The notes under the pieces were generated by a model that saw only the letters and a program-made list of their open reading frames with translations, had not been told where the DNA came from and made no database searches. A stretch of 64,000 bases of DNA, from sequence record NC_047754.1. The stretch is one strand, 5' to 3'. Made by a program: the position numbers and the translations under genes. The number at the start of each line of letters is the position of its first letter. Position 1 is the stretch's first letter. Shown one piece after another: positions 3,064-62,996 of this stretch. The DNA is from Escherichia phage phiAPCEc03.

Positions 3064-3549
3064 ATGGACCATAGAACAAGTATTGCACAAGCTATGGTTG
3101 ACCGAATCTCTAAACAAATGGATGGTTCTCAACCTGACGAATATTTTAATAACCTATACGGAAACGTTTCTCGTCAAACTTATAAATTTGAGGAAATACG
3201 AGAGTTTCCTTATGTGGCAGTTCATATCGGAACTGAAACTGGGCAGTATCTTCCTTCGGGCCAACAGTGGATGTTTTTAGAACTTCCAATCCTGGTGTAC
3301 GATAAAGAGAAAACAGACATTCAAGAGCAACTTGAAAAACTCGTAGCGGATATAAAAACCGTTATTGACACAGGTGGAAATTTAGAATATACTGTTAGTA
3401 AACCTAATGGATCGACCTTCCCATGTGAGGCAACTGATATGATCATTACATCAGTTAGTACAGATGAGGGTCTACTGGCCCCATATGGTTTAGCAGAAAT
3501 AAATGTAACAGTGAGGTATCAGCCTCCACGTAGGTCACTTCGCAGATAA
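3064..3549 (+). CDS. Tail terminator / tail completion protein (T5 p142-like)
   Basis: 161 aa ORF immediately upstream of the tail tube gene; position and size agree with T5 p142 as recalled. Confidence 0.45.
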   Translation: MDHRTSIAQAMVDRISKQMDGSQPDEYFNNLYGNVSRQTYKFEEIREFPYVAVHIGTETGQYLPSGQQWMFLELPILVYDKEKTDIQEQLEKLVADIKTVIDTGGNLEYTVSKPNGSTFPCEATDMIITSVSTDEGLLAPYGLAEINVTVRYQPPRRSLRR

Positions 3550-3575
3550 GTTACAGATTAGGAGAAAATAATTAA

Positions 3576-4970
3576 ATGTCTTTACAACTATTACGTAATA
3601 CTCGAATCTTCGTGTCTACGGTTAAGACCGGTCACAATAAGACCAACACGCAAGAGATTCTAGTTCAGGATGATATTTCTTGGGGTCAGGACAGTAACTC
3701 AACAGATATTACTGTTAATGAAGCTGGTCCGCGTCCAACTCGTGGTTCTAAACGTTTTAATGACTCTTTAAACGCAGCTGAGTGGAGTTTCTCTACTTAT
3801 ATCCTGCCGTATAAAGATAAAAATACTAACAAACAAATTGTTCCTGACTATATGTTATGGCATGCACTTTCTAGTGGTAAAGCCCTTAACCTGGAAGGTG
3901 ATACAGGGGCACACAATAACGAAGCTAACTTTATGGTTAACTTCAAAGATAACTCCTATCATGAGTTAGCAATGTTACATATTTATATTCTGACTGATAA
4001 AGCATGGAGTTATATCGATTCCTGTCAGATTAATCAGGCAGAAGTTAACGTTGATATCGAAGATATTGGCCGTGTAACTTGGTCTGGTAATGGTAATCAG
4101 CTTATTCCTCTGGATAAGCAACCATTTGACCCAGATAAATTAGGTATTGATGATGAAACTTATATGACTATCCAGAGTTCTTATATTAAGAACAAACTTA
4201 CTATCCTGAAAATTAAGGATATGGATTCTGGTAAAGCATATGATATTCCTATTACTGGTGGTACTTTCACTATTAATAACAACATCACGTACCTAACCCC
4301 GAATATTATGTCCCGTGTAAATATTCCGATCGGTTCATTTACTGGTGCATTTGAACTAACTGGTTCATTAACTGCTTATCTGAATGATAAATTTCTTGGT
4401 TCTATGGAGCTGTACAAAGATCTTATCAAAACTCTGAAGGTAGTTAACCGCTTCGAAATTGCTCTAGTACTTGGTGGTGAATACAAGGAAGAACGTCCTG
4501 CGGCTATTCTGGTAGCTAAACAAGCACACGTTAATATTCCTACTATTGAAACTGATGATGTACTTGGTACTTCAGTAGAGTTTAAAGCTATTCCATCTGA
4601 TCTGGATGCTGGTGATGAAGGTTACTTAGGCTTCTCTAGTAAATATACCAAAACAACTATTAATAACTTGATTGTTAATGGTGATGGTGCTACTAATGCT
4701 GTAACCGCAATTACTGTTAAATCTGCTGGTGATGCTACTACAGTAAACAACTCGGCTACTCTTCAAATGAGTGTTGAAGTTACTCCTTCTCCCGCAAAGA
4801 ATAAGGAAGTTACTTGGGCTATCACTGCCGGTGATGCAGCTACTATCAGTGCAACCGGACTGTTGACAGCAGATGCTAGTAAAACTGGTGCAGTTACTGT
4901 GAAAGCTACTGCTAAAGATGGTTCTGGAGTTAAAGGTACTAAACAGATTACTGTAACAGCAGGTGGCTAA
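3576..4970 (+). CDS. Tail tube protein with C-terminal Ig-like domain (T5 pb6-like)
   Basis: 464 aa, matching pb6 size as recalled; C-terminus (VTAITVKSAGDATTVNNSATLQMSVEVTPSPA...VTVKATAKDGSG) is Ig/BIG2-like; SD AGGAGA upstream. Confidence 0.85.
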   Translation: MSLQLLRNTRIFVSTVKTGHNKTNTQEILVQDDISWGQDSNSTDITVNEAGPRPTRGSKRFNDSLNAAEWSFSTYILPYKDKNTNKQIVPDYMLWHALSSGKALNLEGDTGAHNNEANFMVNFKDNSYHELAMLHIYILTDKAWSYIDSCQINQAEVNVDIEDIGRVTWSGNGNQLIPLDKQPFDPDKLGIDDETYMTIQSSYIKNKLTILKIKDMDSGKAYDIPITGGTFTINNNITYLTPNIMSRVNIPIGSFTGAFELTGSLTAYLNDKFLGSMELYKDLIKTLKVVNRFEIALVLGGEYKEERPAAILVAKQAHVNIPTIETDDVLGTSVEFKAIPSDLDAGDEGYLGFSSKYTKTTINNLIVNGDGATNAVTAITVKSAGDATTVNNSATLQMSVEVTPSPAKNKEVTWAITAGDAATISATGLLTADASKTGAVTVKATAKDGSGVKGTKQITVTAGG

Positions 4971-6275: not shown

Positions 6276-6336
6276 AGAGTTACTAGATGCTGTTGCTGAT
6301 TTTGCAGACAAATGTATTAAAAGCTCAGCATCTAAA

Positions 6337-6705
6337 ATGACTAAACAACAATATTTAATACTTTGCGAGTCAATGGGTATAGAGCCTGATCCTAAGGCTA
6401 TGCCCGTTGAACTTGAGGATTTTCCACCTATTGTAGCTATTAGTATGAATATTTATAATAGTCTAGTTGACTGTTTCATACCTGGTGACTTCCCTATCTT
6501 TATAGGTAAAGACAAAGCTGCTTTAGGTGTTTTATTTGATATTTATGGGATTACTGATCCTATAGAAAAAGAATTTGTTCTACACATTATCAATATATTT
6601 GATGCTAAAGCTGTAGACGCTGCACGTAAACGTGCTGAGAAGCATAAGCCGCAAAACGGTAGAATACCTAACGTTAAGCCGCACGCCAGATCTCGAGCAC
6701 GGTAA
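6337..6705 (+). CDS. Tail assembly chaperone, second ORF (possible frameshift extension, frame open from 6250)
   Basis: 122 aa ORF with no SD; its frame is open back to 6250 and overlaps the end of 5871..6275 by 26 nt. Confidence 0.4.
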   Translation: MTKQQYLILCESMGIEPDPKAMPVELEDFPPIVAISMNIYNSLVDCFIPGDFPIFIGKDKAALGVLFDIYGITDPIEKEFVLHIINIFDAKAVDAARKRAEKHKPQNGRIPNVKPHARSRAR

Positions 6706-6740
6706 AAGTTTCCTCCAATGGGCGTTCCACGATGAGGCTT

Positions 6741-6771
6741 GGCTCTGGGTGATTTGCCCAGAGCCTTTTTT
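6741..6771 (+). terminator. Rho-independent terminator
   Basis: Hairpin GGCTCTGGG-TGATTTG-CCCAGAGCC followed by TTTTTT. Confidence 0.8.
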
Positions 6772-6788
6772 ATTGGGAAAAATAAAAT

Positions 6789-9700
6789 ATGACTGATAAG
6801 CTAATACGAGAATTACTAATAGACGTTAAACAGAAGGGGGCAACCCGTACTGCAAAGTCTATTGAAAACGTATCTGATGCATTAGAAAATGCTGCTGCTG
6901 CTTCCGAACTGACAAATGAACAGTTAGGTAAAATGCCCAAAACTCTATATTCCATTGAGAGGGCAGCAGATAGAGCAGCGAAAAGTCTTACTAAAATGCA
7001 AGCTAGCAGAGGTATGCTTAGTATTACTAAATCTATTAATGATATAGGAGCTAAGTTAGATGATCTCGCTATTACAATGATTGAAGTAGCAGATAAATTA
7101 GAAGTCGGATTTGATGGAGTTTCTAGATCTGTTAAAACAATGGGCAATGATGTTGCAGCTGCAACAGAGAAGGTTCAAGATAGGTTATATGATACTAATA
7201 GGGCTTTAGGAGGTACGGCTAAAGGCTTTAATGATACTACTGGTGCTGCTGGTAGAGCTTCTAGAGCTATTGGTAATACTTCTGGTTCAGCACGTGGTGC
7301 AACTCGTGATTTTGCAGCAATGGCTAAAATTGGTGGTAGTTTACCTATTATGTACGCAGCTCTTGCTTCCAATATCTTCGTTCTGCAATCCGCGTTCGAA
7401 CAACTTAAACTAGGTGATCAGTTAAATCGTCTAGAAAAATTTGGTGTTATAGTAGGTACTCAGACTGGTACTCCTGTTCAGTCTCTTGCTAGATCACTAC
7501 AAGAAGCTGCCGGGTATGCTATCTCCTTTGAAGAAGCAATGAGACAAGCATCCTCAGCGTCCGCTTATGGCTTTGATGCCGAACAACTTAATAAATTTGG
7601 TTTAGTAGCTCGTCGTGCTGCTGCTGTTCTTGGTGTTGATATGACTGATGCACTTAACCGTGTAATTAGGGGCGTATCTAAACAAGAAATCGAACTTCTG
7701 GATGAACTTGGTGTCACCATCCGTCTTAATGACGCATACGCTGATTATGTTAAACAGTTAAATGCTGCAAACACAGGTATAACATATAATGTTAATAGTC
7801 TTACCACTTTCCAGAAACAACAAGCATACGCTAACGCGGTAATTGCTGAATCTACTAAGCGGTTTGGCTACCTAGATGAAGTACTACGTGCAACTCCATG
7901 GGAGCAATTTGCTGCTAATGCAGATGCTGCACTAAGAAAAATACAACAAGCTGCTGCTAAGTATTTAGGGCCAGTAATTGATGCTATCAACACAGTATTT
8001 TATACATCTCAGGCTTCTATATCTGCTGAGGCAGCTAGAGCTCAAGAAAAAACTAATAGACAGATAGACCCTACCAACGTTGGTGCTGTTGCTTTAAGTT
8101 TAGCTGCTTCTGAAGAAGGCTATAATAAAGCTCTAGATATGTATAAGGAATCTCTTGATAAGCGTAATAAGCTAAAATCTGAGTTCGATAAACGAATGGA
8201 ACAAGCAGATTTCTATACAAAACTAGCTATACGTCAAGTTGGTGAAGGTATTCCTGTTGGTCTTGCAGCAGCAGGTGCTTCGGAGGCCAATAAGCAATTT
8301 GTAGCAGAAACTGCAGCTATGGGTTTACAAGTAACTAGACTTGGTAAAGAAGTAGAGGATTCTACTGAAAACCTCAATGCTTGGAAATCAGCGTATCAAG
8401 CTGCTGGAGCTGCTGCTGCAAAAGCTAACCCCGAGTTTCAGAAGCAAATTAATCTACAGAGAGATACTACTGATCCTGATGCTGTATACGATTTTAACTC
8501 TACTGTATTAAAAGGACTAACTGAGCAGCAGAAAGCGTACAATCAGACTAAGAAAACTGCTAGTGACTTAGCTAATGATATACAGAACGTTGCTCAGAAT
8601 ACAGATACTGCTGCTAAAACTAGTACTACGTTAGCAGATGCTATAAAAAACATAGAATCTCTATCTCTAGGTACGGGTAAAAGTGCAGATGAGTATGTTA
8701 AAAATCTTAATTTAGGCTATAATACGTTATCTGAGATGAAAACTGCTTCTCAGGCCTTGTCCGAGTATGTTAAACTAACTGGTAATGAAACTAAAAATCA
8801 GTTAGCAGTTCAACAGAAAATAGCCGATGTGTATAATCAAACTAAGGATAAGGAAAAGGCTCAGGAAGCTGGTAGACGTTTAGAGTTGCAACAGTTAGAA
8901 GAGCAAGAAGCTGCTTTACGCCGTGTTCTTCAAACAAACCAGGGAAATAAAGCTGTTGAGAAAGAAATTGAAAAAATTCAGCTGGAGAAACTTAAACTTA
9001 CCAATCAGGGTATGGAGGCCCAGAAGAAGATTAAGGATTATACAGATAAAATCCTGGGTGTAGATCGTGAGATAGCTCTTCTGAATGACCGCACTATGAC
9101 TACTACTCAATATAGATTAGCTCAGCTAAAACTAGAACTAACTATAGAGAAAGAGAAGTACGAATGGTATACAAAACAAGCGGACAAACAGAAAGAGGCA
9201 GAACAGTCTAGACGTGCTCAAGCACAAATAAGCAGAGAAATATGGGAAGCGGAGAAACAGGCAACTGCCTCACATGTATCAGCTCTCATGGATGCGCTAG
9301 AGGTCAGCCAAACGCAGAGGAATGTTACTGGTCAATCTCAAATTCTTACTGAAAGATTATCCATTCTGCAGCAACAGCTGGAGCTGTCTAAGGGCAATAC
9401 TGAGGAAGAAATTAAATATCGTAATGAGATTTATAAAACTTCGGCGGCCTTAGAGCAGCTTAGAAAACAGAGAGATATCCAGATGCAGCAACAGGTGGGA
9501 TCTTCTGTAGGTGCTGTATATACTCCTACAACTGGACTATCTGGGGAGGATAAAGATTTTGCTGATATGCAAAATAGAATGGCTTCTTATGATCAGGCAA
9601 TCTCTAAACTATCTGAATTAAATTCTGAAGCAACCGCTGTGGCTCAAAGTATGGGTAACTTAACTAACGCTATGATTCAGTTCTCTCAGGGATCCCTAGA

Positions 9701-40465: not shown

Positions 40466-43304
40466 GTTCGGACAGTACTTCTTCTGCCATAGCCTTCTCT
40501 TCCTCTGTCATGAATTTGAAAGGAATTGGCATACACTCGATTTTACAATAGGTTCTGTACCAGTCTACGATATTTTCAGTGTTCATATCCTTACCAATAC
40601 CCATCATACCAAGATACATTCTAGCATATTTTGGGTTAGCACTCTGACCTGTTTTAAGGAAGAAATCTTTCTTCTTACCTTTCAGAGCTTCTATGAATGG
40701 TTTGATAGTAACATTTGAACACTTCTTAATATCTTCCCAGAACATCTCGTGCATCTTATGGAAGAATGCAGCTCGATCATTAGGTTTATCTTTGATATAT
40801 TGTTCAACATGCTCAACTGTTACATCTTTAATAGACTCAAGATGATAGTAGCGAACAAGAAGTAGTTTAGCTTCGTACGCATCTGCATGGCGTGGAGCAC
40901 AATAATCAGGAGTTGAATATAAAATAGCTTTGATTCGCTCTTCCGTATACTCTTTTCCTGCACCTTCGATAGTTCCCCAGCTTTCACTGAAAATATCAAT
41001 AGTTGCACCCTGATCAAGCAAGTAATAACGTAAAGTACTAGTATAGTTCCTAGACTCCAGCTCCCTACGACGTGCGTATAATTGCTGTGCTAACTCCAGC
41101 CAACCTTCATCAATGTTATATTGTTCAGAACCTGCGGAGAATCCACTCGTAGATTTATCAATGAAATAATAAATGTTCTGAGCGCCACGGTCGCGCCTGA
41201 TTGCTTGGAAACGCATGTTTGGCGCTTGGTTACTAGTTCTAGTAATAACGAATACGTTATCAAAGTAGTTAAAGTCAACTCCACTCGTTACGGATGGACT
41301 ACATAATAAGCAATCAATTTGTTGATCAATTAGCTCATTAGTTGTGTAATCCAGAATACGTCTAATATCCACATCAGACGTAGAGTTTGAGTGGATTTCC
41401 TTAACTAACGCACCCGTATTACGACGCAACGCCATGCCCTTCTCATTCAGTTCATCTGGTCCACAGTCAGATACTAGGATAGATTTCTCACCCATCTCTA
41501 GAGATGTCTGAAGTGCAACCCAAATACTGGATTCATCAGGAAACTCATAAGCATGAGCTTTTGACAGCATTCTACGGTGATGATTATAAAATGCAACCGG
41601 TTTATCAAACTCAATCAAGGAACCATATGCTTCAATTGTTTCTGCACTAATATCACCATCAGATAATATAATGATTTTTGCAGTTGCAAGAATGTCCCGA
41701 AGAACCTGAATACATTCACGACGTTGTTTAACAACCGGGGCGAATAATAGGTCATTCATTACAGCGTCACATTCATCGATAAAGATTGCATCAATTTGAC
41801 CAATAAAACTCTTGAACTTATGCAAAGAGTGAATAGTTGTGGACATACGGTCAATAGCACCACGCTTAAAATTGAGCATATCTACAGACTTATCATATTG
41901 TCCTGCACTAAATTTCTTGGCATTTGAAGATACCAGTGCTCTAGTATTGGTAATTGCTAAGAAATTACCTTTAATAACTCCTGAGTCTAACCAACGCACA
42001 ACCGCCGTGGTTTTACCTGTACCTAGACTTGCTTTTACAAAAGTCATATAACCTTCTGGTGGCACAGTATTTAATTTCAAGAAGTTATCAGTTTCTAGAG
42101 AATTAGTTTCTAGCTTTTTAAGTGGAATACCTTTTAAAACATCTGGTATATCACGTTTAGAATTATTAACAAACGCTTTCAGAGCCTGCTTACGACCGTT
42201 GTTAAAATAATCTTGAATATTACGACTATTATCTTTAGTTGCAATATACTCAGATAAAGCTGGGCGGATCTCCTTCTCTAGCCAACCAAAATCTACACCA
42301 TCCTCTAGTGCTCGGTGATAGAGTTTAGGAATAATACGTAGATATACACCATCCTCAGCTTCTTCTAACTCGCTGATGGTTTCTTCTACTTTATCAGAGG
42401 CAGCCTTTTTACCTTTAATTTGATCGAGTAAGGAGTAGAACTCCTCTTTAAACTCTCCTCTAGTTGTTTCATAGTCAACTAGATTATTGGGTAAATTTAC
42501 TTTTGAGCCTTTAACAAATACCAGACGTGAAGCACCCTCCGCTTTAAACGGATCTACTATACCATCAGTAAATAAAGGATCTGCAAAGTAATGGAGCTGT
42601 ACGGAAGAGTAATAAGCTAAGTCGGCAATATCAAAGCCATACTTTTGTCTACTACTTTCGTTGATAGATGTAAATAAGAACTTGATTTGACCCTGAGTTA
42701 CTTTAACATTAGATTCTAGTATTAAGTGCATTCGGATACCTGGTTTTAGCCCAGCCGAAGACGATGCATGAGCAATAAACCCTGCATCAAGAGGAAACAT
42801 GTCCTCACTAATACTATTTAACATTCTAATAATATGTCGAGCCATGCCAACAAGATCAAACTTGTTACAACCACCTGTATCTACAATACCATCCACGTCC
42901 ATTGCAATTATATGACTTGGGTTAGATACATTAAAGTTGCCCTTCTTACGTCGCACATTATTTTTAGGTGCAAGACATCGACCTCGTACCGCAACGATAT
43001 GAGGGTCAGACGTTAAACGTCTCATAAGAGGAAGCATTTCTACTAGGGTTTGAGGATCAACTTCATCAATTACATCAAACTTGAAGGGCATTGAAGCTGG
43101 TTTACCTTCAGGATGCTTTGAGGAAAATCTTTTAGCAAAAAGATAGTCTTCTGCTTTAACTTCTCGCCAATTGCCTGTGGCTAAATCGCGATGAAATCCT
43201 GCATGACCTTGTAGGATTGAGAACACAACAATACTCCTGTGTTGGAAATGAAATAAGTTTTCTTTAGGACTATTCAGAAAGAATAGAACAACTGTTACTG
43301 TCAA
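40440..43304 (-). CDS. Large replication protein with P-loop NTPase/helicase domain (start uncertain: TTG at 43304 or ATG at 43091)
   Basis: Walker A SLGTGKTT and Walker B IFIDECD in central region; 954 aa as listed. Confidence 0.55.
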   Translation of the reverse strand: MTVTVVLFFLNSPKENLFHFQHRSIVVFSILQGHAGFHRDLATGNWREVKAEDYLFAKRFSSKHPEGKPASMPFKFDVIDEVDPQTLVEMLPLMRRLTSDPHIVAVRGRCLAPKNNVRRKKGNFNVSNPSHIIAMDVDGIVDTGGCNKFDLVGMARHIIRMLNSISEDMFPLDAGFIAHASSSAGLKPGIRMHLILESNVKVTQGQIKFLFTSINESSRQKYGFDIADLAYYSSVQLHYFADPLFTDGIVDPFKAEGASRLVFVKGSKVNLPNNLVDYETTRGEFKEEFYSLLDQIKGKKAASDKVEETISELEEAEDGVYLRIIPKLYHRALEDGVDFGWLEKEIRPALSEYIATKDNSRNIQDYFNNGRKQALKAFVNNSKRDIPDVLKGIPLKKLETNSLETDNFLKLNTVPPEGYMTFVKASLGTGKTTAVVRWLDSGVIKGNFLAITNTRALVSSNAKKFSAGQYDKSVDMLNFKRGAIDRMSTTIHSLHKFKSFIGQIDAIFIDECDAVMNDLLFAPVVKQRRECIQVLRDILATAKIIILSDGDISAETIEAYGSLIEFDKPVAFYNHHRRMLSKAHAYEFPDESSIWVALQTSLEMGEKSILVSDCGPDELNEKGMALRRNTGALVKEIHSNSTSDVDIRRILDYTTNELIDQQIDCLLCSPSVTSGVDFNYFDNVFVITRTSNQAPNMRFQAIRRDRGAQNIYYFIDKSTSGFSAGSEQYNIDEGWLELAQQLYARRRELESRNYTSTLRYYLLDQGATIDIFSESWGTIEGAGKEYTEERIKAILYSTPDYCAPRHADAYEAKLLLVRYYHLESIKDVTVEHVEQYIKDKPNDRAAFFHKMHEMFWEDIKKCSNVTIKPFIEALKGKKKDFFLKTGQSANPKYARMYLGMMGIGKDMNTENIVDWYRTYCKIECMPIPFKFMTEEEKAMAEEVLSELGATNEDA

Positions 43305-43725
43305 TTTCTCAACAAATTAATTGCAAATACTGAAGTGGGGTGGCAACTTCCACTTTCACGCTGCGCTGCTGCTTTGCTATACCGCACAAATCCTTGAGGA
43401 TGGCCGCTAAGCCAGATTTGCTCACCTAATGCTTCATATACTAGCTCATACTAGATGCAATATAACTTACAGAATCACGTCTCGGAGTTTTTCACTCCTC
43501 CCGTCTCACTTCACAACCACCTCTGTCTAGGTTGCTTCGAGGCCTTACCAGGGTTCCTACGGGACGCAGATCGCTAAGTATTCTATTAACTATTTGTTTA
43601 AAAACTAACACGTAACAGTTAAAACAACCCTTAATGGGGCAGCCTAACTGTTCCGTATCGCGGATTGTAAACAAGAAAAATTAGCAAAATCAATTTTTAC
43701 TAATGTCTCTCAATTCAATATAAAT

Positions 43726-43754
43726 ATTATATCAAGATTTTGGGCATCCTGCAA
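43726..43754 (-). promoter_or_regulatory. T5-type early promoter (- strand)
   Basis: Complement of TATAAT at 43726-43731, 17-bp spacer, complement of TTGCAG at 43749-43754. Confidence 0.6.
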
Positions 43755-43845
43755 GTAAAATTTTCCGGATGGTGCTATCATTGGTCTTGAGTACGGATAA
43801 AACCGAGCCAAAATGACTCGGTAATCAGAGTTCAGCTAATAAAAA

Positions 43846-44238
43846 TCATTCATCATTTAGGCCTGGAACATAAATCCCAACACGATTTAATTGTTCTTTA
43901 GCTTCTGCGAGAATATCTGGAGTGTACTCCCAAATATCATCTTCCACCTGTAAAAGATGGGGCGAACAACCATCATCCGGCACACGACATATGGCCAAAC
44001 CACGTGGATGGAATATAGAGAAGTTTAGGGCAACAATTAAACCCATAGCGGATAATTCATTCCAGTCCAATTCCCATTCCCCCGCGTAGCCGGATAGGAA
44101 AACACCAACACAGGGATCATCTATTTGCTGCTCCGGAAAAGTGAAGGAGGCTTGTCTTACCCCCAACCAACGTTGTAGCAGCTTCTCCGCACGTTTCACC
44201 AAACTAGGATCAATCTGACGCCAATATACTTGTTCCAT
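43846..44238 (-). CDS. Hypothetical protein, paralog of 44248..44676
   Basis: 130 aa; shares PC[VI]G, W.EL..MGL..ALN and Y.P....PGL blocks with the adjacent gene. Confidence 0.55.
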   Translation of the reverse strand: MEQVYWRQIDPSLVKRAEKLLQRWLGVRQASFTFPEQQIDDPCVGVFLSGYAGEWELDWNELSAMGLIVALNFSIFHPRGLAICRVPDDGCSPHLLQVEDDIWEYTPDILAEAKEQLNRVGIYVPGLNDE

Positions 44239-44247
44239 TATGCCCTC

Positions 44248-44676
44248 TTAAGCAGTTAAACCTGGGATCATATACCCGAAACGTCGAAGTTTCTGAATCC
44301 CCTCATCTACTTCTTCCGGTGAGTAAGACCAACCATAACGTTCATTAACCTGAAAACCAGGAGATTCACTAGTTTTATAGTTAACAACGAGGCGATGCTT
44401 AGCAGGCATAAACAGCTTATAGTTTAACGCAAAAACTAAGCCCATTTCATCTAACTCTTTCCAGCCGACAATCTCTTCAAGACCCTCCTCTACCTGAACA
44501 ATTAAACCAATACAGGGGGCCTCATCAATATCATCTTTAAAAGCAAAGGAGATTTCGTTATTCTCACACCATATTTTCAAAGAGTTAATAGCCTCATTAT
44601 ACAGGCTAGCTGGGAGAGTACGCCAAAAGTTAACCAAAATTGGGTTAGCTTCTTTAGAGAATACATTATTGAACAT
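44248..44676 (-). CDS. Hypothetical protein, paralog of 43846..44238
   Basis: 142 aa; same conserved blocks as neighbour. Confidence 0.55.
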   Translation of the reverse strand: MFNNVFSKEANPILVNFWRTLPASLYNEAINSLKIWCENNEISFAFKDDIDEAPCIGLIVQVEEGLEEIVGWKELDEMGLVFALNYKLFMPAKHRLVVNYKTSESPGFQVNERYGWSYSPEEVDEGIQKLRRFGYMIPGLTA

Positions 44677-44678
44677 AT

Positions 44679-45194
44679 TTACACCTTAAATTGTTGCAAG
44701 GATTTACACATTTCAAGATCTGGGCTAAATTCTAGCATATAGCTAACAGCTTTTAAATCTTGAAGATTTATCCCAGTCCTACCGTTGACTATAACCGTTG
44801 GATACTGATACATCATAGCACCCGCATCATCAAGCACACACCAATGTTTGAGCTTATGCTTTTCAACGAAGCGAAGAACAGAATTACCCCTAGATAATCC
44901 ACCACCAGTAAAATCCGTTGTACCAAGAAAACGATCGATAAGACCTAATCCGGTCATAATCTGAACGTTCTCCATCTCATTTCTGACAGAAAACCAAGAT
45001 GATACTCCGACAATCATTATCGGAGAAGGACGAATAAAGTCCTGAAAAGCCTTGAGAAGCGGTTTGAAAACCCAGTCACTTCCAAAGAAAATCTTTTCAT
45101 CATCAGGTGCATGATGGTGGGAGATGCTCGAATTGAGCACCCCATCAATGTCTAGAAAAATAATTGGAGTATTACTTATTTCCACCAGTAGCAT
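44679..45194 (-). CDS. HAD-superfamily phosphatase-like protein
   Basis: Motif I IIFLDIDGVLN (DxDG) near N-terminus; start trimmed to internal ATG to limit overlap. Confidence 0.55.
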   Translation of the reverse strand: MLLVEISNTPIIFLDIDGVLNSSISHHHAPDDEKIFFGSDWVFKPLLKAFQDFIRPSPIMIVGVSSWFSVRNEMENVQIMTGLGLIDRFLGTTDFTGGGLSRGNSVLRFVEKHKLKHWCVLDDAGAMMYQYPTVIVNGRTGINLQDLKAVSYMLEFSPDLEMCKSLQQFKV

Positions 45195-45357
45195 CCCACG
45201 TCCAGACTTTAACTTCATCAGTAAAAGGAACCGGAACCTTCAATTCACCCTTACCCCACATAACAGACAGGAACAGAGAATAAATGGTAATCATACCAAT
45301 TAGGTTGACAAACCATACTAGACCTTTCCAGATACCCTTAAAAATCTTCTTTATCAT
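45172..45357 (-). CDS. Small membrane protein
   Basis: 61 aa with one hydrophobic helix (GLVWFVNLIGMITIYSLFLSVMW); ATG overlaps upstream TGA. Confidence 0.45.
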   Translation of the reverse strand: MIKKIFKGIWKGLVWFVNLIGMITIYSLFLSVMWGKGELKVPVPFTDEVKVWTWDATGGNK

Positions 45358-45524
45358 TCGTTCTCCTCTAGGAACGTATCATACTCAACCGTATCAACAT
45401 ATATGACACCATAGTCATCGGATTTATAGTCCATTTCCCACAGCTCACAGCGATAGCACCAACTACCATCCGCCCATACAAATATATCATCGGGATGTGT
45501 ATACACAGATTTAACTATGGACAT
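45358..45524 (-). CDS. Small Cys-containing protein (not in ORF track), paralog of 45515..45700
   Basis: 55 aa: MSIVKSVYTHPDDIFVWADGSWCYRCELWEMDYKSDDYGVIYVDTVEYDTFLEENE; stop overlaps next start (ATGA). Confidence 0.4.
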
Positions 45525-45700
45525 ATCTGTTTCCCCTCATCTCCAGAGGATAACCATATGTTCTCTGTAGTATAGATAATTTTATATGTGTTGCCCAACC
45601 TTTCTTTAACATTAGGAAATCTATAGGCAAACCTATAACACCACGTGCCAGACTCAGTTATAAAAATATCCCATTCATTATTTCTTGCTTCCCGACACAT
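45515..45700 (-). CDS. Small Cys-containing protein, paralog of 45358..45524
   Basis: 61 aa; shares DIF..(S/T)G(S/T)WCYR and Y.(V/I)IY.T blocks. Confidence 0.4.
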   Translation of the reverse strand: MCREARNNEWDIFITESGTWCYRFAYRFPNVKERLGNTYKIIYTTENIWLSSGDEGKQICP

Positions 45701-46496
45701 AAGGTCTACCCTCTAAATGAGCTTCTACACGAGCAATAAAATCAGGATCACTGAAAGCATCTACCGCACCTTTACTCCAGTAAGGGATACCGCGTTCTTC
45801 CAGCTGGTACATCTCACTACGAGTCATACCTTGATAGCCCGGTTCCGCCGCTAGGGCACTATCATAGTAGTTAACAACCATTAGCTTGGCAGCAGTCAAA
45901 TTAAGAACAGGAAATAATTCCCAGTAGAAGTTAATTACTTGGTTAGAGCAACCAATCACAACGATCATATCTTGACTGGTAATACCATCAAAAACATTGT
46001 ACATTTCTGCGTATGCAGGAGCATGCTCTCCAAAGAAGATTACATTAGGTTTAACCCATTTATAATCATCTGGATCAATAGAATTATATCCTACATCAAT
46101 AATCCGTTTATTACTACTACTGTAGCTATCCGCTACAACAACCTCTTTTAAGTATCCATGAATGTGCAGAATGTCACTATGTGGAACTCCAGCACGCTCA
46201 ATAAGGTCATCAACGTTGGTAGTCAAGTTTACTATTTGACCGGGATATTGTTTATACCATTCGCCAATACGCAAATGCGCAAGATTGGGTTCAACAGTTT
46301 TTAGCTCTTCACGACGCTTGTTGTAAAACATATGGGTTTTATGATAAAAATTACCACGAAAGGCATGAATATTACATACTTCTTCTAGATCATAATCATC
46401 CCACAGTGCTTTACCACTAGCAGTATCAGTACGGAAGGCTCGTACACCACTTTCAACACTCAAACCTGCACCGCTAATAATAATTAATCTACGCAT
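45678..46496 (-). CDS. Sir2-family (sirtuin/CobB-like) NAD-dependent protein lacking the zinc-ribbon module
   Basis: 272 aa; GAGLSVESGVRAFR, FYNKRREEL...EPNLAHL, NLTTNVDDLIERAGV and HIHG align block-for-block with CobB from memory; no Cys pairs where the Zn ribbon normally sits. Confidence 0.75.
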   Translation of the reverse strand: MRRLIIISGAGLSVESGVRAFRTDTASGKALWDDYDLEEVCNIHAFRGNFYHKTHMFYNKRREELKTVEPNLAHLRIGEWYKQYPGQIVNLTTNVDDLIERAGVPHSDILHIHGYLKEVVVADSYSSSNKRIIDVGYNSIDPDDYKWVKPNVIFFGEHAPAYAEMYNVFDGITSQDMIVVIGCSNQVINFYWELFPVLNLTAAKLMVVNYYDSALAAEPGYQGMTRSEMYQLEERGIPYWSKGAVDAFSDPDFIARVEAHLEGRPYVSGSKK

Positions 46497-46710
46497 TTTT
46501 CACCTGTTCTCTGAAGTTTTGCCCAATACTGCCTAATAGCTCAGCTAATTCTTTATTGCCTTTCTCCATTAAGGTATTAGCAATAACTTCTAGCATAGTA
46601 GCGCAGGATTCAACACCATCCTTATAGCCAGTTTCCCAGTGCTGCATTAATGCATTTTCCAAAGCGGCGTTTAACCCCTTATCTGGTAGCATCGGCTTCG
46701 AGAATGCCAT
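46489..46710 (-). CDS. Hypothetical protein
   Basis: 73 aa ORF in same operon. Confidence 0.4.
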   Translation of the reverse strand: MAFSKPMLPDKGLNAALENALMQHWETGYKDGVESCATMLEVIANTLMEKGNKELAELLGSIGQNFREQVKNA

Positions 46711-46882
46711 ACAGTTTCTCCTCTAGTTCCATAACACGATTTTCATAAGAGGCACGCAACTTTTCAATTGCCAGCGCACGCACTGTAACCTCATTAGAAT
46801 TAATAGCTAATTGGGCCAGATCTTCTGTTTCCATACGTCCGTTGTAAATTAAGCGATATTTAAGATGTTTTACGTTTTTCAT
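46679..46882 (-). CDS. Hypothetical protein
   Basis: 67 aa ORF in same operon. Confidence 0.4.
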   Translation of the reverse strand: MKNVKHLKYRLIYNGRMETEDLAQLAINSNEVTVRALAIEKLRASYENRVMELEEKLYGILEADATR

Positions 46883-47238
46883 ACTTTTAGCTCCGCTCCA
46901 ATATCCTCATAGAAGTAATCGTAGTAAACCTGCTTAATATGATGTTTAATAACAGAAGAGAAATCCTCTGTGCCGTTAGAGGTAACATTAAATACTTGTA
47001 AGTGGTTCCAATATACAAATTCTAGAGTCTCTTTTAAGTCTTCAGGTTCTTCATATATAGGATTATAGACAGTAATATCTAATTCTTGCTCTACGAAGTC
47101 ACCTAGTAATGTAGGATATCCAATACCTCCTAGCAATGAGTAATCACCTGTAGCAGCAAAAATAGCTTCCTGAATAGTATCTACTCCTAAGTGATAATGT
47201 CCTAACTTAGATACAACAATAAATGGTTTTAGGTCCAT
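46879..47238 (-). CDS. Hypothetical protein (first gene of operon)
   Basis: ATG at 47238 preceded by SD GAGGAGGG; ORF-track start at 47253 lies upstream of the SD. Confidence 0.5.
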   Translation of the reverse strand: MDLKPFIVVSKLGHYHLGVDTIQEAIFAATGDYSLLGGIGYPTLLGDFVEQELDITVYNPIYEEPEDLKETLEFVYWNHLQVFNVTSNGTEDFSSVIKHHIKQVYYDYFYEDIGAELKV

Positions 47239-47265
47239 ATACCCTCCTCTCAAATTTATAAATCA

Positions 47266-47294
47266 ATTATACATAAGTTTTAGCTCGAAAGCAA
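47266..47294 (-). promoter_or_regulatory. T5-type early promoter (- strand)
   Basis: Complement of TATAAT at 47266-47271, 17-bp spacer, complement of TTGCTT at 47289-47294. Confidence 0.65.
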
Positions 47295-47299
47295 ATAAA

Positions 47300-47336
47300 A
47301 TAAAAGCCAGGTCGACTAGCAACCCGGCTGATTAGC
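47300..47336 (-). terminator. Probable terminator downstream of nrdD (- strand)
   Basis: Hairpin GCCGGG-N13-CCTGGC with T-run on - strand. Confidence 0.5.
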
Positions 47337-49211
47337 TTATTTAGCTCGAATATCCTGATGCTTCACTCTGCCCATCACCTCGTGCTGTTTGCCGGGGTTA
47401 AATGGACGAGCACCCGGATTTCCAAGATACCCACAAACTCTACGAGTTACTTCAAGAGTTTCGGGGTCATGATTACCACAGATAGGGCACTTAAATCCAT
47501 CTTCGGATGCTATTGTTTCACCTAAGAATCCACATTTACCACAAGAATCCACTGGAGTATTAATACCGAAGTAATGAACCTTACTAGCAGCATAATTAAT
47601 AACCCATTCCAGTGCATCTGGGAATCGTTTCATATCCGGTAGTTCTACATAGGAAATGCACCCACCAGAAGCAATCGGAGTAAAGTTAGATTCATAATCA
47701 AATTTTACGTTAGGAGCAACTTTACGTTCCACATCAAGGTGATGAGAGTTAGTGTAGTATCCTTTGGACAGAATATCTTCATGCTCCGAGAAATATTCAC
47801 GGTCTAGACGACAAAAACGGTCACATAGGGATTCTGATGGTGTAGCATACAGGCTATAACCTAACTTAGTTTCTTCCTTCTTCTGATCGACTCTATCCCG
47901 CATGTACTGCAATACACGCTGAACAAACTTGATGCAGGTCTCGGACATTGTGTCTACATCTTTGCCAAACATGAACTGTAGCATTTCATGGCAACCAATA
48001 TACCCTAGAGATACAGAAGCACGGTTATAGAAGTGATCGAATACATATTCATCAGGCTCCAAGCGCAGTCCAAAGGCTCCTGACATATAGAGGATGGGCG
48101 CAGCTTTAGCTTGAATGTATTTTAAGCGATCAACTCTCCACTCCAATGCTTTTAACGCTGTATCCACACGTAGCTCAAGCAAATCAAAGAATAGATCAAT
48201 ATTTCCTTCAGCTTCGATAGCAATTCTAGGCAAGTTTACAGAAACAACACCTAAGTTATTACGACCGGCAGTTTCACCATCTTCTGTAGCAGCTAGGAAT
48301 GAACGGCAGCCCATAGAAACTTTATAGTCGCCAGTAACTTCCACAACCTTGTCATAGCTGATATAATCTGGATACATACGTTCAGACGTACATTTCATAG
48401 CTAACTTCTTGATGTCATAATTAACATCTCCTGGTTTCATGTTAACGCCATCACGAAGCACAAATACTAGTTTCGGGAAGATAGCTGTACGTTTATTGAT
48501 ACCTAAACCATCCATACGTACTTTTAGTATTGCTTTCTGTACTAGACGTGCCTCCCAAGAAGTTCCTAGACCAAAACCAAAGGTAATAAATGGACTCTGA
48601 CCATTAGAGTTGAACATGGTATTGATTTCATATTCTAAACCCTGACAAGCGTCATAGACTTCTTTCTCAGTCATCTCCGTAGCCATTACGGATGCTTTGG
48701 CTTCATCCTTAGTCCAACGTTTTGCAAACGCATGATTTTTGTCATAGGATTTACGAACATAAGGGGCTAATACTTCATCAAGGCGGTCTACAGAAGTACC
48801 ACCATACTGATGGGAGCTAACTTGAGTGATAATCTGAGCAGTAATAGCCGCCGCAGTAGTGATAGAGTTTGGAGTGCTAATTTCAGCATTACCAACCTTC
48901 ATACCATTCTTCAACATATCTTCCAGAGCTACCAGACAACAGTTAGTCATGCCTAATGCAGCATAATCAGCATCATGGAAATGAATATCCCCAATCATAT
49001 GAGCATTTCGAATCTGAATTGGCATTTCTTCTAGAATCAGATACTTACTCAATTCACCTGCAAGCATATCCCTTTGTGTAGGGAAACGTTCTGAGGGTTT
49101 ATTGGCATTATTAAACAGCAGCTCTTCATCTGCTGACCCTTCGATAATCTCTTTGCAGTTTCTAATTAACGCCTGCATTTCTTTATACTTTAGTTCTTCA
49201 TTGCGATTCAT
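47337..49211 (-). CDS. nrdD: Anaerobic ribonucleoside-triphosphate reductase (class III)
   Basis: 624 aa; C-terminal Zn site CGKCGF...CPICGNHD and glycyl-radical motif RVCGYLG. Confidence 0.9.
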   Translation of the reverse strand: MNRNEELKYKEMQALIRNCKEIIEGSADEELLFNNANKPSERFPTQRDMLAGELSKYLILEEMPIQIRNAHMIGDIHFHDADYAALGMTNCCLVALEDMLKNGMKVGNAEISTPNSITTAAAITAQIITQVSSHQYGGTSVDRLDEVLAPYVRKSYDKNHAFAKRWTKDEAKASVMATEMTEKEVYDACQGLEYEINTMFNSNGQSPFITFGFGLGTSWEARLVQKAILKVRMDGLGINKRTAIFPKLVFVLRDGVNMKPGDVNYDIKKLAMKCTSERMYPDYISYDKVVEVTGDYKVSMGCRSFLAATEDGETAGRNNLGVVSVNLPRIAIEAEGNIDLFFDLLELRVDTALKALEWRVDRLKYIQAKAAPILYMSGAFGLRLEPDEYVFDHFYNRASVSLGYIGCHEMLQFMFGKDVDTMSETCIKFVQRVLQYMRDRVDQKKEETKLGYSLYATPSESLCDRFCRLDREYFSEHEDILSKGYYTNSHHLDVERKVAPNVKFDYESNFTPIASGGCISYVELPDMKRFPDALEWVINYAASKVHYFGINTPVDSCGKCGFLGETIASEDGFKCPICGNHDPETLEVTRRVCGYLGNPGARPFNPGKQHEVMGRVKHQDIRAK

Positions 49212-58543: not shown

Positions 58544-59245
58544 ATGAAAGTAAAACCATTTGGTATGCTAGATATTGAATCTCTAGGAACTCCAGGAGAT
58601 TGTGGTACTACTCATATCGTAATGCCTTCTTTCGCTTTTGTGGCTATGCATGGGGTTGATAAAGACCCTGACTTAGTATTTGTTACTTTGGATGTGCAGG
58701 ATCAGCTTAATTCTGGTGCCAAAGTTACAGCATCTACTCTAGCATTCTGGATGGATCAAGCTAAAAATAGCCCGTCTGCTATTCACATTATGGAAGCTAT
58801 GAACGAGCGTAATCCAAAACTGATTGCCTTCCAAAATGGTAAACATCATTGTACTAATAAACTTGGCTCTAACTATGCTGCCTTCTCTATGGCTCAAAAT
58901 ATTATGAAGTTGGCTCTAGGCGAAAATGCTTTGTATTATGGCAATGGCCCAGAGTTTGATATGACTATCTACTCTGCAAACACGTTCCATGCTGGAACCA
59001 ATGAAGAGGTAATTCCGTGGAAATTCTGGAATTTGGGTAATGTTCGATCTCTTCGTAATCTCTGGATGCAAGCTGGATACAGTTATAAGGCTCTAGAGAC
59101 CGAAGGTATTAGCTGGGCAATAGCTAAAATGGAGAAGATGGACACCATTCGTTATGGGATATATCCGGTTAAGCACGACCCAGCATTCGATGCCTTAGTT
59201 GAGAGCTATTGTGTTGCGGCTATGATCGAAAAAATGAAAATTTGA
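58544..59245 (+). CDS. DEDDh-type 3'-5' exonuclease-like protein
   Basis: 233 aa; candidate Exo I MLDIESLG, Exo II FDMTIY, Exo III H-x4-D (HDPAFDALV); SD AAGGATAAG. Confidence 0.55.
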   Translation: MKVKPFGMLDIESLGTPGDCGTTHIVMPSFAFVAMHGVDKDPDLVFVTLDVQDQLNSGAKVTASTLAFWMDQAKNSPSAIHIMEAMNERNPKLIAFQNGKHHCTNKLGSNYAAFSMAQNIMKLALGENALYYGNGPEFDMTIYSANTFHAGTNEEVIPWKFWNLGNVRSLRNLWMQAGYSYKALETEGISWAIAKMEKMDTIRYGIYPVKHDPAFDALVESYCVAAMIEKMKI

Positions 59246-60632: not shown

Positions 60633-60950
60633 ATGACTTTTCATATTTTGATTGATGATGTGCGTAATCTTCACGGAATGGACATTATCATTCGAACCCC
60701 AGAAGCCGCTGTAGAGTTTCTGAATAAAACTGATACCACAGGCCACTTCGTTTATATGGATAATGACTTGGCTGTAGATGGTATGGAAGGTTATCAAATT
60801 CTTCGTTTACTCTTAGAATTTGGGCAGAGACCAAAGAAAGTGGTACTAGTAACCTCGAACCCAGTAGCTAAGCAACATATGCGTAATGATTTGCTTGACT
60901 TAGGGTACAAAGAAAACCCCAATCGTGTTGAATATGATTGGCAGGAGTAA
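60633..60950 (+). CDS. Small protein with receiver-like (CheY-like) fold signature, function unknown
   Basis: 105 aa; beta-alpha pattern HILIDDVRN...DIIIRTPEAAVEFL...FVYMDNDL...KVVLVTSNP. Confidence 0.45.
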   Translation: MTFHILIDDVRNLHGMDIIIRTPEAAVEFLNKTDTTGHFVYMDNDLAVDGMEGYQILRLLLEFGQRPKKVVLVTSNPVAKQHMRNDLLDLGYKENPNRVEYDWQE

Positions 60951-62921: not shown

Positions 62922-62996
62922 CGGGGTGTAGTCTAAGGGAGAGGCAGGAGTCTTCTAAATTCCTTTATGCAGGTTCGAATCCTGTCACCTCGGCCA
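62922..62996 (+). tRNA. tRNA-Arg (anticodon UCU), CCA encoded
   Basis: Hand-folded cloverleaf: acceptor CGGGGTG/CACCTCG (one G-U), U8, D-stem GTCT/AGGC, anticodon stem GGAGT/ATTCC with loop CT-TCT-AA, T-arm GCAGG-TTCGAAT-CCTGT, discriminator G then CCA. Confidence 0.7.

Follow-up and report, generated by a model that had tools for sequence, protein, structure and literature searches.

What use does a T5-like phage have for a sirtuin that has lost its zinc-binding site and is encoded in a small early operon together with a phosphatase? The operon lies at 43846-47294 on the minus strand of a stretch of 64,000 nucleotides (nt) from Escherichia phage phiAPCEc03 (NC_047754.1), which we call the window. 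An original prediction described it as 11 genes behind a single promoter, and proposed that its Sir2-like protein might act on nicotinamide adenine dinucleotide (NAD) in host takeover or counter-defence. The region corresponds to T5.100-T5.107, an accessory early operon conserved in T5-like phages (Tequintavirus): a megablast search with 43700-47400 found 528 matching phage records, the best being Tequintavirus genomes such as vB_EcoS_HdH2 with 95% DNA identity. The operon of T5 itself is orthologous and has the same promoter, terminators and gene order, and six of the genes are 88-98% identical (Sir2 94%, HAD 98%, the DUF7415 pair 91% and 94%). The window differs from T5 by an additional gene of 73 amino acids (aa), an additional 61-aa membrane protein gene and a divergent allele of gene 1. 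For the sirtuin and the HAD phosphatase the healing of RNA ends is the leading hypothesis; from the comparison of sequences and gene neighbourhoods we would give it a chance somewhat short of even.

The 272-aa product matches positions 1-178 of the 180 in the PF02146 profile with 87.2 bits (gathering cut-off 24), which places it inside the Sir2 family, and the motifs quoted for it in the original prediction (GAGLSVESG, TTNVDDL and HIHG) are all present. By sequence the closest solved structures are E. coli CobB (1s5p, 1e-17), Sir2Af1/2 and SIRT5, with about 25% identity to class III. An AlphaFold (AF2) model made from 29 homologs has a predicted local distance difference test score (pLDDT) of 88.5 and a predicted template modelling score (pTM) of 0.87. 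The top Foldseek matches of this model are CobB, Sir2Af1 and SIRT5, with template modelling scores (TM-scores) of 0.82-0.85 normalised to CobB and an alignment which spans nearly the whole CobB chain. The only NCBIfam matches are to deacylase models and are far under the equivalog cut-offs, 99.7 bits against 243 for NF001753 and 89 against 320 for prot_deacyl_CobB.

The residues which define the clade were read from an alignment of 29 members, the window protein and 28 homologs with 54-85% identity. Invariant are GAGxS (G9-S13), F21-R22, Y58, R61-R62, TTNVD (with N94 and D96), H113-G114, KPxVxFFxE and N209, so that the catalytic His, the NAD-pocket residues and the FGE substrate-staple motif are retained. 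The Tyr/Arg pair of SIRT5 and CobB binds the carboxylate of succinyl- or malonyl-lysine. The counterpart of this class III Tyr-x-x-Arg pocket is Y58/R61, which aligns with CobB Y92/R95 (numbered from the CobB sequence alignment and the mutant names of PDB entries 6rxm and 6rxs). With CobB and SIRT5 the window protein thus shares the Rossmann fold and small domain, GAGxS, FR, N, D, the catalytic His and Tyr-x-x-Arg; unlike them it has no zinc Cys, it scores under the equivalog cut-offs, and throughout the clade TTN stands in place of TQN (Thr for Gln), and V-I-N-F in place of the substrate-binding V-x-P.

The original prediction was right that the zinc ligands are missing. None of the 29 clade members has a Cys between H113 (of HG) and F154 (of FFGE), where CobB has its Cys ligands, and there is no Cys4 zinc ribbon. 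Loss of the whole module, which the original prediction hoped to confirm by structure prediction, is not what the model suggests: three strands are still predicted in the segment (residues 114-122, 131-134 and 147-152), and the module appears to be degenerate and not deleted, with the ligands alone lost. Defence-type relatives were looked for in several ways. At E<=0.01 none of the 10 operon proteins matches any PADLOC profile, those of defence Sir2 included, and there is no defence-system Sir2 among the top 50 structural matches of the sirtuin model. Pfam finds neither Macro, Nudix or NADAR domains in the operon proteins nor the fused or adjacent partners of defence systems (SLOG, HerA, Argonaute). 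The defence SIR2 NADases (ThsA of Thoeris, DSR1/2, SIR2-HerA, SIR2-APAZ, SPARSA) share the superfamily and the use of NAD+ with the window sirtuin, but the latter is phage-encoded, sits in an early operon and has neither a fused sensor domain nor a partner ATPase. Judged by sequence and model the sirtuin looks like class III and unlike the defence NADases, and the 272-aa product belongs to a phage-restricted clade which branched from class III (CobB/SIRT5-like) sirtuins and has lost all zinc-binding Cys. Members of the clade occur in roughly a thousand sequenced phage records, from T5-like, rV5-like, KVP40-like and jumbo phages.

The HAD-type phosphatase named in the original prediction by its motif IIFLDIDGVLN is indeed encoded in the operon. 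It matches PF18143 with 72.7 bits (gathering cut-off 27.5) over profile positions 1-138 of 139, and the catalytic motifs D23-I-D25-G-V and L-D-D-A are present; relatives are annotated with a start at what is residue 12 here (~45185). The 179-aa product is therefore predicted to be an intact HAD_SAK_2 phosphatase. Pfam describes HAD_SAK_2 as "HAD domain in Swiss Army Knife RNA repair proteins", and some GenBank records name the gene 'RNA repair protein'. A comparison with the PDB sequences gave nothing even at E<=10. It should be noted that in T5 and many T5-like genomes the RefSeq/PHROG annotation gives the HAD gene the name 'Sir2 (NAD-dependent deacetylase)'. Both proteins are hit by the profile phrog_18062, the HAD at 7e-58 in its C-terminal half and the Sir2 protein at 3e-6 in a short stretch. 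A natural deletion in phage DT57C joins the C-terminal parts of Sir2 and HAD and is annotated "defective" (locus L003 of our survey, 3354-3626); phrog_18062 was apparently seeded by this chimera, which would explain the label.

The HAD gene is followed by two tandem paralogs, which make up one of the two paralog pairs of the original prediction. They are 31% identical (E=4e-20), both strongly acidic (isoelectric point, pI, ~4.5), and each has two matches to the 53-residue PF24187 (DUF7415) model, for which the gathering cut-off is 27.

A survey of 54 viral loci encoding relatives, onto which the ten window proteins were mapped, shows how the sirtuin travels with these genes. In all Tequintavirus and Epseptimavirus loci examined the order is fixed: Sir2, small genes, HAD, DUF7415, DUF7415. 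Pectobacterium phage My1 retains this order for Sir2, HAD_SAK_2 and a single DUF7415 gene. In four Epseptimavirus-type loci (L040-L043, 6001-6840) the sirtuin is 50-51% identical to that of the window, whereas the flanking 67-aa gene is 86-88% and the HAD 90-91% identical, from which we conclude that T5-like lineages have swapped the sirtuin gene as a cassette. More distant relatives have other neighbours. In rV5-like phages, with a Sir2 that is 56-62% identical, a T4 Rnl1-type RNA ligase, a cyclic-phosphate-processing receiver (cREC) protein, a P-loop kinase and in some a short open reading frame (ORF) precede Sir2, and the cREC homolog may stand directly before it. These loci also have a calcineurin-like phosphoesterase nearby and a tRNA cluster within ~6 kb; in rV5_ev168 the kinase is on the opposite strand beside the phosphoesterase, and Sir2 has a MazG-like pyrophosphatase gene after it. 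One jumbo-phage locus (Sir2 ~35% identical) has an Rnl1-type RNA ligase two genes upstream. A nucleoside 2-deoxyribosyltransferase-like gene comes after a jumbo-phage Sir2. The T5-like phages have a cREC gene as well, labelled only 'hypothetical', and it is found in T5-like phages, My1 and KVP40-like Vibrio phages, all of them lineages with the Sir2 clade. The neighbourhood support for RNA repair is real yet uneven.

Most of the components have been described before. T5.102 is annotated as Sir2-like in the T5 genome record. A 2016 study of the Vibrio phages phiSt2 and phiGrn1 reported a KVP40-type Sir2/CobB without the zinc ligand site, proposed that salt bridges substitute for it, and listed T5 among the phages which also carry a Sir2/CobB protein (PMC5107563). 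Iyer, Burroughs, Anantharaman and Aravind (2022; PMC9503650) placed most viral sirtuins in a clade of their own with three types of neighbourhood, in one of which, that of the T5-like phage SP15, the sirtuin adjoins a "Swiss-army-knife" (SAK) HAD. They proposed (section 3.7.3) that the viral sirtuins without a Macro partner remove RNA 2'-phosphates in the manner of KptA/Tpt1 and repair nuclease-cut RNA; the missing Macro partner sets the clade apart from the ADP-ribosylating sirtuin systems. The same group has defined cREC as a cyclic-phosphate-processing domain and the SAK HAD as the linear terminal phosphatase of RNA repair.

The 'RNA-repair' clade is marked by linkage to genes of RNA end processing (HAD_SAK, cREC, RNA ligase, kinase, 2H and Nudix) and by the lack of a Macro gene. 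The window locus has features of this clade: no Macro partner, a HAD_SAK_2 gene four genes downstream of Sir2 and a cREC gene elsewhere in the window. It has the Macro-less sirtuin and SAK HAD pairing of the SP15 type, and we reproduced the neighbourhoods of the rV5 and jumbo types. Databases or papers already contain the operon, its Sir2 annotation, the absent zinc site and the pairing of Sir2 with HAD, and the sequence feature is not new. The prediction in PMC9503650 is computational only, and the DUF7415 and phrog_5116 paralogs, the remote cREC gene of T5-like phages and the missing phage RNA ligase go undiscussed there. A counter-defence role, which the original prediction had also suggested, is plausible and has thus already been proposed in print.

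Following Iyer et al. (2022), the sirtuin would use NAD+ to strip phosphate from damaged RNA ends. An oxygen of the 2'-phosphate, held in the Tyr/Arg pocket, would attack C1'' of NAD+ with release of nicotinamide, and the 2''-OH, activated by the catalytic His, would then resolve the ADP-ribosyl adduct. With a 2'-phosphate as substrate these sirtuin steps would be the Tpt1 reaction step for step (its mechanism is summarised in PMC11417386). The likeness is confined to the proposed chemistry, in which NAD+ gives its ADP-ribosyl group to an anionic oxygen and the ribose 2''-OH attacks in a second step: KptA/Tpt1 has the ADP-ribosyltransferase (ART) fold, which has no homology to the Rossmann fold of sirtuins, and RNA 2'-phosphotransfer by a sirtuin is a prediction. 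The HAD and the separately encoded cREC protein might act on terminal phosphates, cyclic or linear, by opening or removing them, or clear the ADP-ribose phosphate by-product. The joint effect of the three proteins would be the healing of tRNA or mRNA which host defences of the anticodon-nuclease type have cut. In its most specific form the hypothesis says that this is the first sirtuin acting on nucleic acid, an NAD-dependent RNA 2'-phosphotransferase which with the SAK HAD and the remote cREC undoes cleavage of tRNA or mRNA by defence nucleases, and that the four acidic DUF7415 modules form a separate inhibitor or adaptor layer; this version we put forward tentatively and rate as possible.

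Several observations weigh against RNA-end healing. All of the retained pocket residues fit an ordinary class III lysine deacylase equally well, and the sirtuin has a pI of 5.5 and a net charge of about -9, which is unusual for an RNA-binding enzyme. The Klebsiella T5-like phages keep Sir2 and DUF7415 and lack the HAD, and seven further loci (L035, L037, L038, L044, L045, L047 and L051) have no recognisable RNA-repair domain beside Sir2; at loci of the L035 and L037 type the neighbours have no Pfam domain and belong to PHROG families without assigned function, except for one DNA methyltransferase. The cREC gene of the T5-like phages is 14 kb from the operon and on the opposite strand. A tblastn search of the window and of T5 1-40 kb for homologs of RNA ligase, polynucleotide kinase and phosphoesterase turned up only cREC, the ligase search being made with two Rnl1 queries and having limited sensitivity; T5-like phages apparently have no RNA ligase of their own, and sealing would therefore depend on a host enzyme. 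The domain fusions of DUF7415, which are described below, favour nucleotide metabolism over RNA repair. In the literature searched we found no experimental or biochemical study of any sirtuin of the clade.

First among the alternatives, the sirtuin could be a conventional class III enzyme which deacylates lysine (as a desuccinylase, demalonylase or deacetylase) without structural zinc. Early in infection it would remove acyl marks from host or phage proteins, e.g., enzymes of metabolism or the machinery of transcription and translation, and the HAD and the small proteins would be neighbours with no functional link to it. The top sequence and fold matches, the confinement of the NCBIfam matches to deacylase models, the invariance of the succinyl-lysine-recognising pair Y58/R61 and the retained FGE motif and catalytic His all agree with this. 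The 2016 study also argued from modelling that a phage Sir2 without zinc could remain folded by means of salt bridges and act as a deacetylase (PMC5107563). The proteins of KVP40 type are ~39% identical to the window sirtuin and likewise lack the zinc ligands of the small domain, but those phages pair Sir2 with the NAD-synthesis genes NAMPT and NMNAT and have no adjacent HAD. At variance with a deacylase are the scores far under all CobB equivalog cut-offs and the clade-wide TTN and V-I-N-F replacements; neither an acyl-transferase partner nor a target is evident, and a deacylase does not explain why independent phage lineages repeatedly link Sir2 to genes for RNA ligase, cREC, kinase, phosphoesterase and HAD_SAK. 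We consider the deacylase possible, and would not be much surprised by it.

Another alternative takes the operon as an adjunct to nucleotide metabolism. The HAD would then be a nucleotidase or sugar-phosphate phosphatase, the sirtuin would work on small molecules of the NMN/NAD type as CobB can in cobalamin synthesis (the phosphoribosyl-transfer role of CobB is cited in PMC9503650), and DUF7415 would tether or regulate nucleotide enzymes. The operon lies directly 3' of nrdD both in the window and in T5, and a Klebsiella T4-like phage has a small-ORF homolog of DUF7415 immediately downstream of nrdD (L060, 2980-3213), as the whole operon is in T5-like phages. The MazG-like pyrophosphatase and nucleotide kinase near the rV5-like Sir2 and the deoxyribosyltransferase-like gene after that of a jumbo phage point the same way. 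When 1.8 billion representatives were searched with a DUF7415 profile, 157 proteins were found, in which the widespread core, residues ~56-110, mostly stands alone in small phage proteins; three representatives (P0210, P0228 and P0234) carry it as a fusion, one with thymidylate kinase and two with dATP/dGTP pyrophosphohydrolase. No second Pfam domain was seen in the remaining long matches, and one match is a spurious immunoglobulin (Ig)-repeat protein. For the 130-aa DUF7415 protein the best of five models has a pLDDT of 92.5 (the other four 66-75), and a fold comparison with it revealed no characterised relative. These are thin hints that DUF7415 may be tied to (deoxy)nucleotide enzymes. The fusions involve DUF7415 and not the sirtuin, however, the HAD falls specifically in the RNA-repair SAK family and outside the nucleotidase families, and the position next to nrdD may simply be a hotspot for small accessory genes. 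A nucleotide role of the operon we find unlikely.

T5 uses an NAD-dependent DNA ligase, and depletion of NAD+ would starve the phage too. The reading of the original prediction, by which a zinc-less Sir2 cleaves NAD or ADP-ribosylates proteins or DNA for host takeover or for interference with NAD-based defence, can point to the absent zinc ligands, to the early-type promoter and to the defence sirtuin domains that act as NADases and the sirtuins that ADP-ribosylate proteins (PMC9503650), but we hold it to be highly improbable: the operon proteins include no Macro, Nudix or NADAR partner, and the class III kinship, the invariant pocket, the predicted strands and the lack of a defence profile or structural match leave the argument from no zinc to an NADase unsupported.

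Is the operon needed at all? The original prediction had stated that none of it is required for replication, and published data show it to be dispensable. A genome-wide CRISPRi-ART screen of T5 scored T5.100-T5.106 as 'Not Fit' (PMC11879866, supplementary file 16), and T5.107, the ortholog of the 130-aa DUF7415 gene, was alone of the operon 'Fit' (p=0.02). The screen scored the T5.108 helicase as 'Not Fit' too, and its sensitivity is therefore limited. The deletion in DT57C, which removes parts of both Sir2 and HAD, is natural evidence of the same kind. The operon is dispensable in the laboratory, which fits a conditional role.

The features of the locus are collected in Table 1. One promoter and one terminator enclose ten small genes. 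Ten minus-strand ORFs, tightly packed or overlapping and with small gaps, run from 47253 to 43846 and code in this order for 124, 67, 73, 272, 61, 56, 61, 179, 142 and 130 aa, one fewer than the 11 genes first counted. The single promoter was correctly located and coincides with the one annotated in T5; in its sequence the window, T5 and HdH2 hardly differ. It falls below the threshold of a generic consensus scan because only 3 of 6 positions of the -35 hexamer fit, and the terminator scan overlooks the terminator which closes the operon because the loop is longer than 8 nt. In T5 the genes are bordered by nrdD and by T5.108, the origin-binding helicase, and the record annotates the promoter and the flanking terminators.

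Table 1. Position and support of the features in and around the operon (aa, amino acids; GRAVY, grand average of hydropathy)
Feature	Position	Strand	Support and remarks
Intrinsic terminator of upstream nrdD, 5' boundary of the operon	47305-47329	-	10-bp stem with 6 GC pairs, then T-run; annotated at same place in T5 and HdH2
Sigma-70-type promoter	47266-47294	-	-35 TTGCTT 47294-47289, 17-nt spacer, perfect -10 TATAAT 47271-47266; read from sequence; just after nrdD terminator
Gene 1, 119 aa from ATG 47238 (124 aa from upstream TTG), acidic	46879-47238	-	phrog_11748 1e-64; no Pfam match; T5.100 counterpart 49% identical
Gene 2, 67 aa	46679-46882	-	phrog_5236 3.7e-46; T5.101 homolog; in all Tequintavirus and Epseptimavirus loci examined
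Gene 3, 73 aa	46489-46710	-	phrog_5827 2.6e-30; in some relatives only, absent from T5 and many loci
Sir2-family protein, 272 aa	45678-46496	-	PF02146 1.7e-24; phrog_2162 4.8e-120; T5.102 ortholog
61-aa protein, SGTWCYR motif, first of tandem paralogs	45515-45700	-	phrog_5116 4.4e-24; T5.103-like; in some relatives only
56-aa acidic protein, DGSWCYR motif, second paralog	45354-45524	-	phrog_5116 6.8e-28; pI 4.05; T5.104-like
61-aa basic protein, predicted single membrane span, variable insert	45172-45357	-	phrog_11166 2.5e-44; 22-23-residue hydrophobic stretch; GRAVY 0.42; pI 9.7
Predicted HAD_SAK_2 phosphatase, 179 aa	44679-45218	-	PF18143 4.9e-20; phrog_1818 1.6e-57; T5.105 ortholog
DUF7415 protein, 142 aa, acidic, first paralog	44248-44676	-	PF24187 5.2e-36 (123.1 bits); phrog_2502; pI 4.67; T5.106 ortholog
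DUF7415 protein, 130 aa, acidic, second paralog	43846-44238	-	PF24187 4e-32 (110.7 bits); T5.107 ortholog
Intrinsic terminator closing the operon	43802-43822	-	ACCGAG/CTCGGT stem, 9-nt loop, T-run; read from sequence; annotated at same place in T5 and HdH2
cREC (cyclic-phosphate-processing receiver) protein, 105 aa, possible distant partner outside the operon	60633-60950	+	PF20274 1.5e-14

The start of gene 1 is most likely the ATG at 47238, which is preceded by a GAGGAGG Shine-Dalgarno sequence and agrees with the 119-aa annotation in HdH2; among T5-like loci the gene occurs as two divergent alleles (~95% or ~47-51% identity). The second of the predicted paralog pairs also proved to be there, with the G(S/T)WCYR motif as quoted, except that the member given as 55 aa has 56. 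Both belong to phrog_5116, and their direct match covers only 13 residues, little beyond the G-x-W-C-Y-R block. A small membrane protein was likewise predicted, and a 61-aa product with one hydrophobic stretch answers to the description; its gene occurs in a minority of T5-like loci (L022, L023 and L040-L043). Of the ten operon proteins, those outside phrog_5116 all fall in PHROG families without assigned function. The Sir2-HAD interval (45172-45700, minus strand) is a hotspot of gene gain and loss, in which relatives hold 0-3 small genes, phrog_5116 paralogs and the membrane protein, in varied combinations.

Downstream of the operon terminator and a promoter-like TATAAT, ~470 nt without a convincing ORF (43305-43800, minus strand) separate the operon from the gene of the 954-aa origin-binding helicase. 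T5 has an equivalent gap, with a promoter at 58999-59073 and the coding sequence (CDS) from 59545. Neither convincing repeats nor iterons were found in 43305-43800, and its RNA folding is modest against shuffled sequences (z = -2.05). An Rfam scan of 43200-47400 at E<=1 gave a single chance miRNA match. On the upstream side nrdD is annotated in HdH2 as two adjacent CDSs (648 and 1323 nt; 6311-8282 of locus L001), whereas the window has an intact 624-aa NrdD ORF (47337-49211). The sole tRNA gene found in the 64 kb is a tRNA-Arg(TCT) at 62922-62996 on the plus strand; the tRNA cluster of T5 lies in the adjoining part of the T5 genome.

For annotation the practical outcome is that the label 'Sir2' given to the HAD gene by RefSeq and PHROG annotation is a mislabelling which affects many T5-like genomes. 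If the sirtuin is a deacylase, phages edit the acyl-lysine marks of their host. If it removes 2'-phosphates from RNA, the chemistry of sirtuins would extend to nucleic acids, and phage counter-defence would gain a new arm against anticodon nucleases.

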